A DNA stretch of 64,000 bases from an uncultured delta proteobacterium. Lineage in GTDB: Bacteria; Myxococcota_A; Polyangia; Polyangiales; Polyangiaceae. Shown in pieces: positions 1 to 4,853 of this stretch (position 1 is the first letter of the stretch; the number at the start of each line of letters is the position of its first letter). Position numbers and translations under genes: made by a program. The DNA lies in assembly GCA_963716725.1 (NCBI GenBank), contig CAVQUB010000003.1:237978-301977 (forward strand), read 5' to 3'. The notes beneath the pieces were generated by a model, which was not told where the DNA came from, did no database searches, and saw only the letters and a program-made list of their open reading frames with translations.

Positions 1-415
1 GCGCGAACGCCGCGGCGTGCAGCACCGCCAACGCCGGCCCCTTGTCGTCCGTCGCGCCACGCGCGTAGTAGCGGTCGCCCTCGATGGACATGCGAAAGGG
101 CTCACGCTCCCAGGCGTCTCCGTCAGCGGGTTGCACGTCGAGATGGTTGTAAATGCTCACCGTGGGCTGCTTGCGGTCACTCACGAACCGGCCCACGACC
201 ACTGGGTTGCCACGTGTCTTCAGGATCTCGGCGCTGCCGCCCAGCCTGACCACCGCCTTGGCCGCGGCTTCGGCGCCTCGCGCGATGTCAGGGCGATGCT
301 CGGGGGCAAGGCTGATGCTCGGGATCTCGACCCACCGGCGCAGCTCTGACTCGTATTTCGATCGCACGCCGCGCACGTAAATGTCGAGCGCCTTCGGATC
401 GATGCCGACAACCAT
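1..415 (-). CDS. M20/M25/M40 family metallopeptidase (runs off window start, 3' part missing)
   Basis: Manual minus-strand translation (not in ORF track): MVVGIDPKALDIYVRGVRSKYESELRRWVEIPSIS...PTVSIYNHLDVQPADGDAWEREPFRMSIEGDRYYARGATDDKGP, with the M20 HxDV and RGAxDDKG motifs. Confidence 0.9.
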   Translation of the reverse strand, partial: MVVGIDPKALDIYVRGVRSKYESELRRWVEIPSISLAPEHRPDIARGAEAAAKAVVRLGGSAEILKTRGNPVVVGRFVSDRKQPTVSIYNHLDVQPADGDAWEREPFRMSIEGDRYYARGATDDKGPALAVLHAAAFA

Positions 416-519
416 GCGGCGCATCCTAGCAGGTCGGTCTCGAGTTCCGCGCGCAGATTGATCGCCTCGGATCGCCGGACGCGACACGTCGATCCGCTGA
501 CCGACGCCCTGGTTGCCGC

Positions 520-1539
520 TCAGGGGCAGTGCCACTTCAAGCCGCTGCCGTCATAGCGACAGCGACAGTACGAATTTGCGTACGGACACAGCGCTTGGCT
601 GTCGCTACAGGCGCTCTCGGCAGCCGGCTTCGCTGTCGGGCAGGTCAGGCAACTCCAGTTGGTGGTCGTGCCGCCGCACCCGCAGGCGTTGTTGCCGTAG
701 TTGCAGGTGTCATCGTAGCCGTTGCAGTTGGCTCCGTCGTTCGGCTCGCTCTGCGGGCACGGGTTGCAGTGCCAGGTCCCACCCCAGCAAGTGCACTGGT
801 TGTTGCTGTACTTGCAGATCGTCCCAGGAGCGCTGCACGACGAGTTGTTCTGCGGCGCAGCGGGCGAACACGCGCTGGTCGTTCCACCGCTGCCACCCGC
901 GCCGCCGCTGCCGCCCGCGCCGCCGGTCGTTCCACCGCTGCCGCCGGTCGTTCCTCCGCTGCCGCCGGTCGTTCCACCGCTGCCGCCGGTCGTTCCACCG
1001 CTGCCGCCGGTCGTGCCTCCGCTGCCGCCGGTCGTTCCACCGCTGCCACCGGTCGTTCCACCGCTGCCACCGGTCGTGCCGCCGCTGCCGCCCGCGCCGC
1101 CACTGCCGCCCGCGCCGCCCGCGCCGCCACTGCCGCCCGCGCCGCCACTGCCGCCCGCGCCGCCGCTGCCGCCCGCGCCGCCGGTCGTTCCACCGCTGCC
1201 GCCGGTCGTTCCACCGCTGCCGCCGGTCGTTCCACCGCTGCCGCCGGTCGCGCCGCCGCTGCCGCCGGTCGTGCCACCGCTGCCGCCGGTCGTTCCACCG
1301 CTGCCGCCGGTCGTGCCACCGCTGCCGCCGGTCGTGCCACCGCTGCCGGCAGACCCGCCCGTCGCTCCGCCGGAGCCACCGGTGTTCCCGGAACCGCCAG
1401 CGCCACCCGTGGCGCCGCCGCTTCCCCCGGTGTTCGAACTGCCTCCAGTTCCGAACTGGAACTCTTCGTAGTCGTTCGAACAGGCAACGGCCAGCGCGAC
1501 GGTCGCGCTGACAACCCAAAGCGTGCGACGTCGGATCAT
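520..1539 (-). CDS. Lipoprotein with long Gly/Ser/Thr repeat stalk and three 6-Cys C-terminal repeats
   Basis: MIRRRTLWVVSATVALAVAC lipobox; GGSGGTT repeats; 3 x C-x4-P-x5-C-x6-C-x-Y-x4-C-x-C-xn-W-x-C. Confidence 0.85.
   Translation of the reverse strand: MIRRRTLWVVSATVALAVACSNDYEEFQFGTGGSSNTGGSGGATGGAGGSGNTGGSGGATGGSAGSGGTTGGSGGTTGGSGGTTGGSGGTTGGSGGATGGSGGTTGGSGGTTGGSGGTTGGAGGSGGAGGSGGAGGSGGAGGAGGSGGAGGSGGTTGGSGGTTGGSGGTTGGSGGTTGGSGGTTGGSGGTTGGSGGTTGGSGGTTGGAGGSGGAGGSGGTTSACSPAAPQNNSSCSAPGTICKYSNNQCTCWGGTWHCNPCPQSEPNDGANCNGYDDTCNYGNNACGCGGTTTNWSCLTCPTAKPAAESACSDSQALCPYANSYCRCRYDGSGLKWHCP
877..1350. repeat. Coding tandem repeat: two blocks of 8 x 21-bp (GGSGGTT) units separated by 18-bp GGAGGS units
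   Basis: Unit ccgctgccgccggtcgttcca read directly from sequence, synonymous variants between copies. Confidence 0.95.
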
Positions 1540-1618
1540 GGTCGAACCTTGGATCAGATTCGCACGCCGCGCGCCAAAGTGCCAGCTACGTCCGCTCGCA
1601 CCTCGGAGCACACGGTCG

Positions 1619-3511
1619 CTATTTCTTCTTCATGGTGGGGGGCGGGAGGGGATCCGGCGGCGGCGGCGGCGGCGGTCTGAAGCCGGTGTTCGTGGTGGTC
1701 GGCGGCGGAGGTGGATCCATGGGCGGCACCAGATCCGGCGGTGGCTGCGCGAACTCCGACGCATCCGGCTTGGGCTGGATCTCGAGGGCCTGACCCGCGT
1801 CTGCCAGGACGGGCGGGCCTTCGTGCTGCTCGCGCATGTGGGGCGGCGGCAGCGGATCGGGCGGCGGCGGCGCCAGCGGATCACAGGCCAAGGGAGTGAG
1901 CGCGATGGCAGCTGCGGCGGCCGCGCCCCAGCGCGGAACCGCGCGGGTCCTGGCCACGCCATGCACCGCACTCGAGATGGCGTGACTCACCTCGGCGACG
2001 CGGGCTCCAAGGGAGCGGTTCGCGCGCTCGACCTCCTCGAAGACAATGCCCGAGAAATCGTCGAAGGCCGCGGCATCGAGCGACGGCGGCGACTCGGCAA
2101 AATCGACGATCTCGTTCATGCGCGCCACCGAGTCCAGGTTCACCTGCCGGATGGTTTCGATCGTGCGAGCATGGAGCGTCGAGGTCCGCGCCTTCGGATA
2201 AAACTGCCGCAGCAAGTGCCAGTAGTAGCCGAGCGACAGGTTGCTGTTCATCAGCCCGTCGCAACGGAAGTTCCGATCGAGGAAGGTCCTCGCGAAAATG
2301 CGAAAGGCGCGCTCCGCCGCTGGGTCGCTGATCTCGTAGTCCCACCCGAAGACGTCGCCCACCAGCCGCTGCTCGCGCGCGAGCTTCTGGTGGAGCGGCG
2401 TGCCCGGGTAGATCTCGGTTCGGCAGAAGTTCATCGGCACGTCGGCGTTGCGCTTCAAGAAGGCGAGGCTCTCGCGCAGCGACCGAATGCGGGTCTCCGG
2501 ATCGAAGATCAGCATGTTGAAGCAGGCGTAGACGTCGATCTCGCGCAAGAAATCCAGGGCGCGTTGGTTCTGCGCGATGTCCACGCCGCGCCCGAGAGTC
2601 TTGAGCCCCTGGGTGCTGCCGGCCTCGATCCCGATGTACATGCGCAGCAGCCCGATCTCCCGCAGCACGCGGAACACCTCGGTGTCGAGATCGTCGGGAC
2701 GGGCTTTGAGCACCAAGGCGACGTCGTTCACACCACGCCGCCGGAATGCGTCGCGCAAGCTCGTGACGCGCGCCAGGTCGCGGACGGCGTTGCGGGTGAA
2801 GAAGTCGTCATCGTGAAACACGAGCATTCGTGCGCCGCGCTCGCTACGCACCGCGGCGACCTCGTCAGCGACGTTGTCTGCGCTGCGCGAGCGGTAGCGC
2901 TCTCCCCCTGCGTCGGCGATGTAGGCGTGGATGCAGCAGAAGGTGCAGTGGCCATAGCAGCCTCGGGTACCCACCAAGAACGCCGCAGGGATGCCCATGT
3001 GCAGCTGCGGCTCCCCGGTACGCACCGGGAAGTGAATCGCGTCGAGGTCCGATGCCAGCGGCCGAGGCGGGGCTGCGTAGATGCTGCCATCCGGCCGGCG
3101 CTGCACCAGACCGGCCACGTCGTCCAGTGACGCACCGAGCCGCTCGCACAACTCGACCAGGGTCGACTCGCCCTCGTGTCGCACGACGCTGTCGATGCTG
3201 GGAAAGCGCTCCAGCACCTCGCGATAGGCAAAGGTGGGGAAGTGCCCGCCAACCGTCAGGTGTCCCGAAAAGCCTCCGTCGCGCAGGCTTCCCGCGAGCT
3301 GCCCAAACTCCTCGGCACGCCGCTGAAACGTCATCGACAAGCCGATCACGTCAGGCTCGAAGCGACGCGCGGCCTCGTGCACCGTCGCCGTGTCCGCCGG
3401 CGATGAGAAGGGCGCCAGCTCGCTGCGATGCCCGGCCGCATCGAGCGCCGACGCGAGGTAACGAATCGCCAGGTTCTCCTCCAACTCCGACCCCACGAGC
3501 AGCACTTTCAT
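1619..3511 (-). CDS. Cobalamin-binding radical SAM protein (class B methyltransferase-like) with C-terminal hydrophobic and Pro-rich extension
   Basis: N-terminal B12-binding fold motifs (ENLAIRYLAS, DVIGLS, VGGHFPT); TRGCYGHCTFC CxxxCxxC; FHDDDF; YIGIEAG; tail WGAAAAAAIALTPLACDPLAPPPPDPLPPP...DPLPPPTMKKK. Confidence 0.93.
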   Translation of the reverse strand: MKVLLVGSELEENLAIRYLASALDAAGHRSELAPFSSPADTATVHEAARRFEPDVIGLSMTFQRRAEEFGQLAGSLRDGGFSGHLTVGGHFPTFAYREVLERFPSIDSVVRHEGESTLVELCERLGASLDDVAGLVQRRPDGSIYAAPPRPLASDLDAIHFPVRTGEPQLHMGIPAAFLVGTRGCYGHCTFCCIHAYIADAGGERYRSRSADNVADEVAAVRSERGARMLVFHDDDFFTRNAVRDLARVTSLRDAFRRRGVNDVALVLKARPDDLDTEVFRVLREIGLLRMYIGIEAGSTQGLKTLGRGVDIAQNQRALDFLREIDVYACFNMLIFDPETRIRSLRESLAFLKRNADVPMNFCRTEIYPGTPLHQKLAREQRLVGDVFGWDYEISDPAAERAFRIFARTFLDRNFRCDGLMNSNLSLGYYWHLLRQFYPKARTSTLHARTIETIRQVNLDSVARMNEIVDFAESPPSLDAAAFDDFSGIVFEEVERANRSLGARVAEVSHAISSAVHGVARTRAVPRWGAAAAAAIALTPLACDPLAPPPPDPLPPPHMREQHEGPPVLADAGQALEIQPKPDASEFAQPPPDLVPPMDPPPPPTTTNTGFRPPPPPPPDPLPPPTMKKK

Positions 3512-3623
3512 GCGCGACCTCCCAGGCGGTGAGTCTGCCAGACTTCAATCGATCTGGAGGTCCAATAATGCGGTGGCGCCGGAGACGCGCTCGACCCACG
3601 CGGGCCTGTGCTATTTTGCGCTG

Positions 3624-4853
3624 ATGCGCGGTCGATTTCTGGGTGTTGCTCTGTTCACGCTGTCGAGCCTGGCGAGCGCCTACGACGAGAACCACGTGTT
3701 CATCACCAATCGCGGTGGCAACAACGTGCTCGAGCTCGACGAGAACCTGACCTACGTCAAGAGCTGGTTCGACGGGGCGGCCCTCAGCGTGCCCAACGGC
3801 ATGGCCTTCGATCCTCTCGACCGCCTCTACTTGGCCGACACGGGCAACGACCGCATCGTCGTGTTCGACGACAAGGGCGCCGTCGTCACGACCTGGGGCA
3901 CGAAGACGCTCTTGGCGCCGCAGGTCGAGAGCTTGAACTTCAACGCGGCGGGCAGGTTGTTCGCCAGCGCCAACCCAGGCAACGGCACGGTCGCAAGCTG
4001 GAAGAACGACGGCAGCGACCAGAAGGTGTTTGTCAGCGACTCGTCCTACCTGAGCCTGGGCAACGTGAACTTCAGCATGGGCGGCAACGTGCTGCTCGCG
4101 GACTTCTCGGGCTCCCGCGGCGTGCGCGAGCTGAACCCAACGACCGGCGCGCTCATCACCGAGTTCGGACAGGGCACGAGCAAACACGAAGACATGGTCG
4201 TCGACGCCGACGACAACGTCTTCGTCTCGGCGTTCACCCAGAACAAGATCCTGAAGTTCGACGCCACGCGAAAGCAGGTGGGAACCTATTCTCCTCCGGG
4301 TTTGGTTCAGCCCACTGGCATCGTCTTGACCGCCGGCTGCAAGCTGCTCGTGGCCTCGTTTGGCACCCACGAGATCTTCGAGCTCGACTATGACGGCACC
4401 TTCATCAAGAAGTTCACGGTTCCCGGCTTGTCGCTGCCCGAGAGCTTGGTGATCGCGAAGCTCTCGGTGGCCGGATCGATTTCCCTCGGCAAGGCCGTGC
4501 CGGACTGCGAGGGGCCCGACGGCGGCAGCGGTGGCGCGAGCGGCGGCGCCGGCGGCAGCGCGGGCAGCGGTGGCGCGAGCGGCGGCGCCGGCGGCACCGC
4601 GGGCGGCGGCGGGGCGGCCGGCAGCGGCGGCGCCAGCTCGGGGGGAAGCGCCGGCAAGGGCGGCGGCTCCGCGGCGACGGGTGGCGCGGCGAGCGGCGGC
4701 GCTCCGGCGAAGGGCGCCACGACCTCCGACGACGATGGCGGCTGCGGCTGTCGCGCGGCCCGATCAGATCCGCGTTCGAGCCTCGCCAGCGCCTTGATGC
4801 TGCTCGGGGTGGCGCTCTTGCGCCGGAAGCGCTCGCGTCTCGACGCCGAGTAA
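3624..4853 (+). CDS. Secreted NHL/SMP-30-like beta-propeller protein with Gly-rich linker and MYXO-CTERM sorting signal
   Basis: Signal peptide; PNGMAFD..LYLADTGNDRIVVFD NHL repeat; C-terminal DDDGGCGCRAA-hydrophobic-RRKR. Confidence 0.88.
   Translation: MRGRFLGVALFTLSSLASAYDENHVFITNRGGNNVLELDENLTYVKSWFDGAALSVPNGMAFDPLDRLYLADTGNDRIVVFDDKGAVVTTWGTKTLLAPQVESLNFNAAGRLFASANPGNGTVASWKNDGSDQKVFVSDSSYLSLGNVNFSMGGNVLLADFSGSRGVRELNPTTGALITEFGQGTSKHEDMVVDADDNVFVSAFTQNKILKFDATRKQVGTYSPPGLVQPTGIVLTAGCKLLVASFGTHEIFELDYDGTFIKKFTVPGLSLPESLVIAKLSVAGSISLGKAVPDCEGPDGGSGGASGGAGGSAGSGGASGGAGGTAGGGGAAGSGGASSGGSAGKGGGSAATGGAASGGAPAKGATTSDDDGGCGCRAARSDPRSSLASALMLLGVALLRRKRSRLDAE

Follow-up and report, generated by a model that had tools for sequence, protein, structure and literature searches.

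Introduction

Radical SAM enzymes of class B are described to C-methylate residues of peptides, for example proline in the case of BotRMT3 and valine or isoleucine in the case of PoyC (PMC11285071), while ApyD, another enzyme of this class, C-methylates tyrosine (PMC13703928). In the borosins, the methyltransferase is fused to its own core peptide and is presumably used only once (PMC11285071). The radical SAM enzyme QhpD, in turn, modifies QhpC in a single turnover in the cytoplasm, before QhpC reaches its destination, the periplasm (PMC7876137).

Here, we describe a locus that recalls each of these systems. The window, by which we mean the whole stretch of 64,000 nucleotides that was analysed, contains an ORF at 1619..3511 (630 aa plus stop codon) that encodes a class B radical SAM enzyme and, behind it, a signal-like segment that leads into a Pro-rich tail. 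This ORF and all features within it lie on the (-) strand. Literature searches, which did not extend to subscription journals, found no published account of this fusion or of an internal lipobox.

Results

Residues 1-519 of the protein correspond to a complete class B (B12-binding) radical SAM enzyme. Its B12-binding domain (residues 12-121; 3149..3478) matched Pfam PF02310 with an E-value of 1.3e-18 and a score of 67.4 bits (cut-off 32.1) and was confidently modelled as a Rossmann-like fold, while the Radical SAM core (residues 181-341; 2489..2971) matched PF04055 with an E-value of 3.3e-16 and 60.3 bits (cut-off 29.5). The core contains the cluster motif CYGHCTFCC (2933-2959), which reads C185-x3-C189-x2-C192-C193 and comprises four cysteines that are invariant among 46 sequences. 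The C-terminal helical domain of the enzyme (residues 397-519; 1955..2323) carries many invariant residues as well and reached pLDDT values of 80-98 in an AlphaFold2 model that is confident over residues 1-520. In this model a long helix, residues 480-519, closes the helical domain and runs into the basic stretch of the signal-like segment. Fold comparison with Foldseek retrieved OxsB (E 1.4e-19) as well as MgmA, TsrM, TokK and CysS (E about 1e-15), with OxsB being the closest solved structure at an identity of only about 18%. Given the two Pfam domains, the invariant CxxxCxxC motif, the confident model of residues 1-520 and the fold matches, the protein is assigned to the class B radical SAM superfamily, and binding of cobalamin and a [4Fe-4S] cluster as well as cleavage of SAM are predicted.

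The search against NCBIfam reached the cut-off of no curated family. The best-scoring ones, BchE (105.5 bits, cut-off 481), HpnR (104.4 bits, cut-off 650) and HpnJ (90.1 bits, cut-off 578), are lipid or tetrapyrrole enzymes, and all scores stayed far below the cut-offs. ApyD gave 85.5 bits (cut-off 750) and the ladderane-type B12 radical SAM family 66 bits, while two B12-type radical SAM families that are defined by their tails were matched weakly (NF040542 with 41 bits, NF040546 with 29 bits). Pfam recognized the B12-binding and Radical_SAM domains only and detected no SAM-dependent alpha-N-methyltransferase domain.

The frame runs without a stop from the enzyme through the signal-like segment into the tail. 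The preliminary description of this DNA had read it in the same way, as a stop-free passage into a basic, hydrophobic and Cys-containing segment and a DPxP tail, and both this reading and its coordinates were confirmed. Two contigs, X1 record 2 (1694-2377) and X2 record 10 (1763-2635), cover the junction with 0 differences; they stem from runs of different studies, one of which may be the source sample of the window itself. A third contig, X10 record 6, is 90-95% alike and spans 1504-3600; the one indel listed for it comprises 3 bases and lies behind 1796, yet the gap tally of the same record is 6. Thus, a stop codon ahead of the tail, which would have undone the earlier reading, is found in none of the contigs from other studies. 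Homologues from many assemblies, 120 of them listed, show this frame just as uninterrupted, and so do the orthologues of 7 related genomes. Third-position GC content is similar in both parts (0.86 in the core, 0.83 in the tail), substitutions in the tail relative to the orthologues fall mostly on third codon positions, and every indel is in frame, a pattern that indicates purifying selection on the tail in the frame of the ORF. The fusion of enzyme and tail is real and conserved and, since contigs from two other studies bridge the junction, not an assembly error.

Between enzyme and tail, residues 520-543 are laid out like a lipoprotein signal peptide: a basic n-region-like stretch, ARTRAVPR (residues 520-527; 1931..1954), is followed by an h-region-like stretch of 15 uncharged, Ala-rich residues (WGAAAAAAIALTPLA, residues 528-542; 1886..1930; about 15 uncharged Ala/Leu-rich residues in the general layout) and then by Cys543 (1883..1885). 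The segment begins at residue 520 of 630 and is thus not N-terminal, as it would be in lipoprotein precursors. AlphaFold2 placed a short helix at residues 530-537. Family-wide, the 14 residues before the hydrophobic segment contain on average 3.5 Lys or Arg and 0.23 Asp or Glu, and the uncharged run before the cysteine has a median length of 16 residues (118 proteins), in agreement with that of the genome's own N-terminal lipoprotein-like signals, which mostly measures 12-15. Asp or Glu directly follows the cysteine in 74 of 117 members.

The cysteine had been noted before as lipobox-like. Its conservation is borne out, as hydrophobic segment and Cys are both retained in 118 of 121 family members (P0066 and P0076 lack the Cys) and Cys in all tailed paralogues examined; the surrounding sequence, by contrast, is atypical, because the 'lipobox' of the window reads TPLAC, with Pro at -3, and deviates from [LVI][ASTVI][GAS]C. 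Most close homologues share this proline (SPLAC in 25, APLAC in 17 and TPLAC in 8 of 117 sequences). The L/V/I-[ASTVI]-[GAS]-C pattern fits 21 of the 117 members and a stricter, PROSITE-like one only 6. Pro at -3 also occurs in 6 of the 372 lipoprotein-like signals at protein N-termini in this genome, for example APLAC/G. Processing by signal peptidase II is uncertain, since Pro at -3 is so common and few members fit the lipobox patterns.

The Pro-rich tail (residues 544-630; 1622..1882) comprises 87 aa, consists of about 40% Pro and ends in TMKKK. It contains DPLAPPPP (residues 544-551; 1859-1882), DPLPPP (552-557; 1841-1858), DLVPP (593-597; 1721-1735), DPPPPP (599-604; 1700-1717) and a second DPLPPP (620-625; 1637-1654). 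In 117 tails of the family, DP[LPVIA]P was counted 513 times, which exceeds chance, as 200 shuffles gave a mean of 98 and a maximum of 120. Elsewhere in the genome the DPxP motif is rare (0.108 per 1000 aa); after filtering by GC3, a clustering of at least two such motifs in 120 aa is seen in only 8 ORFs of the whole genome, of which two are tails of this enzyme family. The check proposed earlier, whether homologues keep the tail and vary in repeat number, came out in favour of the finding: DPxP motifs are kept in 120 of 121 members, that is, in all 120 untruncated ones, and their number ranges from 1 to 8. For 96 of 120 proteins, the final motif stops 4-9 residues short of the C-terminus, and in 115 of 120 the next residue is Lys or Arg. 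In the AlphaFold2 model the tail is unplaced, with pLDDT values below 50 and without a docked pose. A complex prediction of the enzyme (residues 1-520) with the tail (544-630), run without controls, returned scores of 0.00 and 0.17 against a mark of 0.32 and weighs on neither side.

An in-frame GTG at 1957, which encodes V519, had been proposed as a possible start of a separate lipoprotein of about 112 aa. This internal start was rejected: no Shine-Dalgarno-like sequence precedes it and neither Val nor Met is conserved there in the homologues, so a separately translated lipoprotein is unlikely. A separate tail gene was not found either. A word-index search with residues 520-630 against proteins shorter than 346 aa gave 5 matches, all of them fragments of the fused family. 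When the 118-aa tail was compared by phmmer with 1.84 billion representatives, 2 matches emerged, a family fragment (P0126) and a chance match to a translated tandem repeat of 2699 aa (P0127), neither being a separate tail gene; this is a weak negative, because known full-length members were missed as well. The ESM Atlas search with the tail yielded no usable match.

An M20 peptidase fragment (2..535, (-) strand) does lie two genes downstream in the same orientation, as stated earlier, but it is kept only beside the closest relatives: of the 5 orthologous loci whose downstream DNA extends over at least 3.5 kb, 2 contain it, a count that leaves out L002 and L028 with only about 0.4 kb each. As conserved partners, the M20 peptidase, a Gly-rich lipoprotein and an NHL protein were all rejected, their tblastn matches being confined to the closest orthologues (lipoprotein in L002, L024 and L029; M20 in L024 and L029; NHL in L029). 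None of the three was found in L025, L026 or L027, each with at least 8.5 kb of downstream DNA, and no neighbour gene is conserved across the orthologous loci examined. A scan of positions 400-3800 detected neither promoter nor terminator. Since conserved neighbours are lacking and the tail was never found as a separate gene, the one-gene unit appears, judged from these genomic comparisons, to be self-contained.

Tails are also found in paralogous clades whose enzymes are 35-42% identical and share the same layout. Their lipoboxes are canonical (LGC/GGD, GSAC/GDD, ASGC/SGG, TMAC/GED, AAGC/KEK and AAAC/G), and all 11 clade-2 paralogues end the lipobox in [GAST][AG]C. The presumed exported parts vary by clade and comprise a Pro-rich tail, an Ig-like domain or a 480-aa region. 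In clade 2, (M/V)VVDPPPPDAG repeats are combined with an Ig-like domain, a confidently modelled 7-strand sandwich at the end of the tail. Such a sandwich fold is typical of extracytoplasmic proteins. The 11 clade-2 linkers contain 36 DPxP motifs where 3.2 were expected, and these repeats are located between the Cys or anchor and the Ig-like domain, where a lipoprotein tether would be expected. DPxP is the sole tail feature that the main clade and clade 2 have in common, their tails being otherwise unlike; this could reflect common descent instead of independent retention, because the tree leaves the relations of the clades unsettled. Two further tailed types, L021 and L030, show no clear DPxP repeats; not every fused tail therefore carries the motif, and it could be a property of linkers. 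In the paralogue tails Pfam found no domain, including no TonB_C.

In the tail-less clade, the gene immediately upstream of the enzyme encodes a lipoprotein and has the same orientation; this was seen in all 7 of the 7 genomes that gave a strong match. In a profile comparison, the C-terminal part of this lipoprotein shows a weak likeness to the Ig-like domain of clade 2 (hhalign probability 49%, E 1.8e-4), which is only suggestive; BLASTP of the lipoprotein against the clade-2 tails gave no match. Together, the lipoprotein-like tails of the paralogues and the lipoprotein encoded beside the tail-less enzyme add support to a link between this enzyme family and lipoproteins, as far as gene layout and sequence likeness go.

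Discussion

The borosin-like interpretation put forward in the preliminary description is partly supported by these results. Our best explanation, which we regard as possible but somewhat short of probable, is that the ORF encodes a cytoplasmic cobalamin-dependent radical SAM enzyme that is fused, ahead of an internal lipoprotein-type signal, to its own exported peptide substrate. The hydrophobic segment would probably insert into the cytoplasmic membrane, leaving the enzyme inside and the tail outside. Whether Lgt would then lipidate the cysteine and signal peptidase II cut before it is close to evenly balanced in our judgement, with a slight lean against; such a cut would free a lipopeptide of 88 residues. 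In E. coli, Asp at +2 is a signal for retention in the inner membrane, and Asp at this position could mean the same for the lipopeptide. Before export, the enzyme may, as we tentatively propose, modify the DPxPPP units of its own tail or that of a partner molecule, and Pro, Leu or Asp would most plausibly be C-methylated or altered by other radical chemistry. The enzyme would thereby stand in for the leader peptide of a RiPP and be used once. Our confidence in the whole is as limited as it is because it is set by this modification step. In favour of the explanation we count the class B identity, the conserved signal-like segment with its charge asymmetry, the canonical lipoboxes and the Ig-like domain of the paralogues, the DPxP unit that two clades share and that is fixed near the C-terminus, purifying selection on the tail, the seemingly self-contained gene, the lipoprotein gene beside the tail-less enzyme and the precedents named in the Introduction.

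Several observations were counted against the preferred reading. An enzyme of 520 residues with its cofactors would be costly if used once. The tail lacks a docked pose in the AlphaFold2 model, Pro occupies position -3, and P0066 and P0076 do without the cysteine. Furthermore, the highest-scoring curated families comprise enzymes of lipids or tetrapyrroles.

A wider form of the same explanation seems doubtful to us, albeit worth stating. It would amount to a new way of making modified lipopeptides and lipoproteins: enzyme and substrate would be translated as a single chain, parted only by an internal lipoprotein signal peptide, the enzyme would modify the DPxPPP repeats in the cytoplasm, and Sec, Lgt and signal peptidase II would then export, lipidate and cut off the tail, with the enzyme as the 'leader' and the general lipoprotein pathway serving as the leader protease. 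The Ig-like tails, the 480-aa tail and the split pair of lipoprotein and enzyme would then be instances of one strategy, family-wide in Polyangia, to mature envelope lipoproteins by radical chemistry.

The strongest rival is a membrane-anchored enzyme, which we consider rather unlikely. The segment would stay in the membrane for good as a single-pass anchor, the enzyme lying on its inner and the tail on its outer side; the substrate would be a membrane lipid or another molecule rather than the tail, and the Pro-rich tail would act in the periplasm as a stiff polyproline rod or docking motif. The charge asymmetry suits an N-in/C-out membrane segment, but with a median of 16 uncharged, Ala-rich residues this segment is short for a stable helix anchor and typical of signal peptides. 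Among the top curated families are B12 radical SAM enzymes that modify lipids (HpnR with 104, HpnJ with 90 and the ladderane type with 66 bits), although the scores of these lipid-enzyme families are all 4-6 fold below the cut-offs. The tail is unstructured in the model, the DPxP repeats of clade 2 lie tether-like between anchor and folded Ig-like domain, and proteins of the TonB type offer a precedent, as they possess a Pro-rich, periplasm-spanning region behind a single anchor. However, a plain spacer fails to explain a DPxPPP unit that recurs across clades and is fixed at the C-terminus, and a plain anchor does not account for a cysteine that 118 of 121 members and all tailed paralogues retain.

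It is improbable, in our estimation, that enzyme and tail are merely produced together. The tail would be released as a lipoprotein or lipopeptide with an envelope function of its own and left unmodified by the enzyme, while the fusion would couple only amounts or location, for example if the signal peptide were retained and kept the enzyme at the membrane. The conserved signal-like segment with its cysteine, the different exported parts of the paralogue clades and the model without a docked tail all agree with such co-production. Yet it gives no reason why one enzyme family should repeatedly be fused to, or encoded beside, lipoproteins, nor why DPxP should recur in two clades.

Far less credible is a tail that stays in the cytoplasm together with the segment, where cysteine and tail would serve catalysis or regulation. 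Some B12-type radical SAM families of NCBIfam are indeed defined by motifs at their C-termini (CUAEP-tail, RCCLKC-tail), and NF040546 and NF040542, to which the window protein is weakly alike, are of this kind. Nevertheless, the order of basic, hydrophobic and Cys elements with acidic residues behind the cysteine resembles export signals, canonical lipoboxes and an Ig-like domain occur in the tails of paralogues, and the cysteine, preceded by an Ala/Leu stretch of 15 residues, lies 350 residues away from the cluster motif. Finally, a missed stop codon, frameshift or chimeric assembly that joined the enzyme gene to a downstream lipoprotein gene found no supporting evidence and is ruled out for practical purposes by the homologues and orthologues with the same frame, the identical junction in contigs of two other studies and the coding-like divergence of the tail.

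If the preferred reading holds true, the protein would be the first example of a radical SAM enzyme joined to the substrate it acts on, and its signal peptide the first of the lipoprotein type to lie inside a protein, where it would part a cytoplasmic maturase from its exported product. The system would represent a new biosynthetic logic for ribosomal peptide natural products and a compact one-gene route to modified, lipid-anchored, proline-rich peptides, and it would assign a role to many unannotated B12 radical SAM genes of myxobacteria from soil and water. Even if the segment were a permanent anchor, the protein would be without a described precedent, as a cytoplasmic Fe-S/cobalamin enzyme that a conserved segment with a Cys tethers to a polyproline tail in the periplasm.

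Comparison with known systems

The window protein shares its N-terminal B12-binding domain and CxxxCxxC radical SAM core with the class B enzymes that act on peptides or proteins, namely BotRMT3 (Pro), PoyB/PoyC (Val, Ile and others), ApyD (beta-carbon of Tyr) and MgmA (Gln of methyl-coenzyme M reductase). In contrast to the window protein, none of these is described, in the accounts drawn on here, as fused to its substrate or as carrying a signal-like segment.

The segment itself resembles lipoprotein signals, as the family displays a basic stretch, 12-16 uncharged residues, a cysteine and then small or acidic residues. It differs from the usual ones in its position behind a folded enzyme of 519 residues and, in most members of the main clade, in the Pro at -3. 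Like bitopic proteins of the TonB type, the window protein has one hydrophobic segment and behind it a Pro-rich stretch, which on the topology proposed above would be extracytoplasmic; TonB, however, has neither an enzyme domain nor a conserved cysteine after the anchor, and its Pro-rich region consists of Glu-Pro and Lys-Pro repeats, not of DPxPPP. The TonB C-terminal domain was not found by Pfam in the window protein or its paralogues.

By analogy, the architecture is like that of borosins of types I-III such as OphMA, in which a single polypeptide comprises the enzyme and, C-terminally, the core; in our case the tail is the presumed core. Borosin enzymes are SAM-dependent backbone N-methyltransferases, whereas the enzyme of the window belongs to the radical SAM type; moreover, enzyme and core of the borosins are not separated by an export signal, and the core is released by a protease and not by lipoprotein signal peptidase. 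The timing proposed here finds its analogue in QhpD and QhpC, where a radical SAM enzyme modifies an exported substrate once and in the cytoplasm, and both are encoded together. QhpD differs in being of the SPASM type, in making thioether bonds and in being separate from QhpC, which possesses a leader peptide instead of a lipoprotein signal.

Layout of the gene and reality of its reading frame

The query gene (window 1619–3511, minus strand) is a single unbroken frame of 630 codons which joins a complete class B radical SAM enzyme to a signal-like segment with a conserved cysteine and a tail of DPxPPP repeats; the arrangement is conserved and subject to selection. Pfam places a B12-binding domain at residues 12–121 and a Radical_SAM domain at residues 181–341, while the cluster motif reads C185-x3-C189-x2-C192-C193. 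After residue 519, a valine encoded by a GTG at window 1957, the frame runs on through ARTRAVPR and then WGAAAAAAIALTPLA to Cys543. The 87 residues behind this cysteine comprise DPLAPPPP, DPLPPP, DLVPP, DPPPPP and DPLPPP and end in TMKKK. The preliminary description was correct in everything it stated about the sequence of this gene, and the fusion it observed is now confirmed far more strongly than could be known at that stage.

An assembly or reading-frame artifact is ruled out by homologues of the same layout, by unbroken orthologues and by contigs spanning the junction. Among 5.8 billion proteins searched, 296 relatives were found; the best 120 of these have 559–712 aa, share 56–96% identity and carry C-terminal parts of the same layout. 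Seven genomes, six from the same genus and one from a neighboring genus, have orthologous frames that run unbroken over the whole query. As to a stop codon ahead of the tail, which the preliminary description had considered, contigs from two public sequencing runs, each belonging to a separate study, cross the enzyme-tail junction with 0 differences. In a third study, a 90–95% alike contig reaches across the entire gene (one listed indel of 3 bases; 6 gaps in the record table). The window itself may stem from one of these runs.

In a comparison with the 85% identical orthologue, first, second and third codon positions differ at 13, 8 and 38 sites in the tail (33 synonymous and 15 non-synonymous codon changes) and at 63, 39 and 196 sites in the enzyme core (159 synonymous, 77 non-synonymous). 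All indels are in frame, and the synonymous codons of the last DPLPPP unit differ from genome to genome. At codon level, the tail evolves as the enzyme does.

The enzyme

No curated NCBIfam family reached its cut-off; the best were BchE, HpnR, HpnJ and ApyD with 85–105 bits against cut-offs of 481–750. By sequence, OxsB is the closest solved structure (E 9.6e-22). An AlphaFold2 model based on a 46-sequence alignment has a mean pLDDT of 79.7. Its confident part covers residues 1–520 and includes a helical C-terminal domain whose last element is a long helix (480–519); residues 521–630 are unplaced and the tail is undocked. Foldseek matched the model to OxsB, MgmA, TsrM, TokK and CysS. The enzyme belongs to an uncharacterized clade of class B radical SAM enzymes, for which homology gives the class and not the reaction.

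Segment and tail across the main clade

The anatomy of the family was studied in 121 proteins, the query and 120 homologues, and tail statistics were calculated from 117 tails. A hydrophobic segment followed by Cys is present in 118 of the 121; P0028 is truncated, and P0066 and P0076 have the segment and lack the Cys. The 14 residues preceding the segment contain on average 3.5 Lys/Arg and 0.23 Asp/Glu, and the median length of the uncharged run ahead of the Cys is 16 residues. Tails are 36–163 residues long (median 92) and consist of 42% Pro and 8.5% Asp. The unit DP[LPVIA]P occurs 1–8 times per tail, in total 513 times, while 98 are expected from shuffled tails (at most 120 over 200 shuffles). 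Of 120 proteins, 99 have DPLP as the last unit, 96 place the end of the last unit 4–9 residues from the C-terminus, and 115 have Lys/Arg behind it. The tail is thus conserved, with a variable repeat number and a fixed C-terminal unit; conservation among homologues and variation in repeat number had both been raised in the preliminary description.

Within the window's own genome (G000), GC3-filtered ORFs totaling 1.79 million residues contain the motif 193 times, a rate of 0.108 per 1000 aa. Just eight such ORFs contain at least two units within 120 residues, and two of the eight are the tails of the query enzyme and of its clade-2 paralogue. The sole other site with five close units is an ORF on contig C5 (123288–123929, plus strand) with the tandem run LDPPPMPDPPPMPDPPPMPDPPPMPDPPPLP, which has no link to a radical SAM gene. 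Among public entries, the 2699-aa 'protein' P0127 is a translated tandem DNA repeat whose tail match sums chance similarity over 17 repeats, a warning for searches with low-complexity queries.

Likeness to lipoprotein signals

For comparison, 372 N-terminal lipoprotein-like signals were collected from G000. Since the distance from basic residue to Cys is mostly 12–15 residues in these, the internal segment has the size of a signal peptide and not that of a typical membrane helix. This layout gives good support to the predicted export of the tail. The query lipobox, however, is TPLAC and thus has Pro at −3; among 117 family members, only 21 match the usual pattern L/V/I-[ASTVI]-[GAS]-C. Such a Pro is also seen, though rarely, in the genomic signals (6 of 372, including APLAC|G and LPLGC|G). 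Lipidation and cleavage at Cys543 are plausible but uncertain, cleavage because of this Pro. Asp at +2, likewise rare in these signals (19 of 372), is found in 59 of 117 tails, and Glu in 15. In E. coli, lipoproteins with Asp at +2 stay in the inner membrane.

Paralogues

The strongest context for reading the fusion is provided by the paralogues. G000 and its relatives contain several, with enzymes 35–42% identical; the genomes bearing them are mutually related, so that counts are not independent. Clade 2, seen in 19 of the 301 genomes sampled from the class, comprises frames of 750–918 aa (one of 1346 aa), besides short or cut pieces and a broken copy in G000. Its members are built of enzyme, basic stretch, hydrophobic stretch and a canonical lipobox (LGC|GGD, GSAC|GDD, ASGC|SGG, TMAC|GED), followed by (M/F)V(V/A)DP(P/L/A/V)P(P/A)D(A/S)G repeats and a domain of about 100 residues. 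In 11 clade-2 linkers, DP[LPVIA]P was observed 36 times against 3.2 expected (maximum 9 in 500 shuffles). The end domain (L031:9576–9884 and 10 other loci, alignment A3) is modeled with confidence as a seven-strand Ig-like beta-sandwich (pLDDT 86) and has neither a Pfam family nor a specific PDB match (best Foldseek E 0.012). The G000 copy (contig C15, 316972–319201, minus strand; L023/L037) has enzyme, lipobox, DPxP repeats and Ig-like domain and is broken over two reading frames near C15:318140–318156, either as a frameshifted pseudogene or through an assembly error; its orthologues in the related genomes G001 and G002 are intact (738–740 aa).

Two further paralogue types carry AAGC|KEK, a Pro-rich stretch and a domain without Pfam match, or AAAC|G and a 480-residue region; Pfam gave no match on the tails of clade 2 and these two types. 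In a tail-less clade the enzyme ends at about 540 residues, and its gene is directly preceded, on the same strand, by a lipoprotein gene in every one of the 7 genomes where the match is strong; a further match, the eighth, is weak (E 9e-9), restricted to the Gly-rich part and located elsewhere. This looks like a conserved two-gene unit, found in G000 on contig C9 (73607–76209, minus strand; L022/L047) and in six other genomes. The lipoprotein (350–365 aa) combines a Gly-rich linker with a conserved SSGDEC..C motif. Between its C-terminal part and the Ig-like domain of clade 2, profile comparison gave a suggestive alignment (hhalign probability 49%, E 1.8e-4, 50 columns), and BLASTP of the lipoprotein against clade-2 tails gave no match. 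The enzyme-core tree recovers each clade with 99–100% support but not the order among clades; no polarity was drawn, because the outgroup branches are very long.

Neighborhood and distribution

Directly downstream of the enzyme lies a gene for a 363-aa lipoprotein-like product (window 520–1611, minus strand), whose signal ends LAVAC|S. In this product, GGSGGTT/GGAGGSG repeats extend over about 200 residues and the C-terminal part is rich in Cys; Pfam and NCBIfam gave no match. Similar Gly-rich lipoproteins adjoin some orthologues (L026) and not others. Further downstream, on the enzyme's strand, the start of an M20 peptidase gene is present. Upstream and divergent are a GH31 glycosidase and an NHL-repeat/SMP-30-like protein (window 3510–4853, plus strand). 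The latter contains a Gly/Ala/Ser-rich linker and bears a MYXO-CTERM sorting signal, which marks the organism as a myxobacterium. Such neighbors are retained only beside the closest orthologues, unrelated genes standing at loci L025, L026 and L027, and no conserved partner gene was found among the orthologous loci compared. The peptidase link suggested earlier is thus not supported, in a comparison that excluded L002 and L028 for having too little downstream DNA. At E ≤ 1e-150, the main clade occurs in at least 13 of the 301 genomes sampled from the class and in at least 8 of 136 genera, each genome having a single match; both counts are lower bounds, the first look in that search having been stricter. 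All named members derive from metagenome-assembled genomes of Polyangiaceae, Myxococcales, Labilithrix or Byssovorax and are generically annotated as 'cobalamin-dependent protein' or 'radical SAM protein'.

Proposed function

We propose that the segment probably inserts into the membrane, with the enzyme inside and the tail outside. The Cys might then be lipidated and the chain cut before it, for which we see slightly less than an even chance. More tentatively, the enzyme may modify the DPxPPP units before export, on its own chain or on a partner chain. Modification before export is favored because enzymes of this one family repeatedly occur in fusion with lipoproteins or next to lipoprotein genes, because a cytoplasmic Fe-S enzyme could meet an exported protein only at that stage, because DPxP is the one tail feature common to clades with otherwise unlike tails, and because no other gene is conserved nearby. 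Against it stand the undocked tail of the AlphaFold2 model, the Pro at −3 with the doubt it casts on cleavage, the two tailed paralogue types without DPxP repeats, and the clade-2 repeats, which sit exactly where a lipoprotein tether would and could therefore be a structural linker. The main rival is an enzyme that stays anchored permanently, extends a polyproline rod into the periplasm and acts on a lipid or another molecule; we consider it somewhat less likely than modification before export. Self-modification, as suggested by the layout, remains the leading hypothesis, yet unproven. The preliminary interpretation is supported in part: the tail and the signal-like segment have endured as conserved family features, while an internal start at the GTG found no more support than the peptidase.

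Comparison with known systems

As precedents, PMC11285071 describes C-methylation of Pro by BotRMT3 and of Val/Ile by PoyC, both class B radical SAM enzymes, and borosin enzymes fused to their own core peptide, presumably for single use. Methylation of the Tyr beta-carbon by ApyD is described in PMC13703928, and modification of the periplasm-destined QhpC in the cytoplasm by QhpD, in a single turnover, in PMC7876137. The enzyme class is known already, as is the logic of an enzyme-substrate fusion, with borosins as the one precedent. For an internal lipoprotein-type signal between a radical SAM enzyme and a repeat tail, full-text literature searches (subscription journals being outside their scope) delivered no earlier description.
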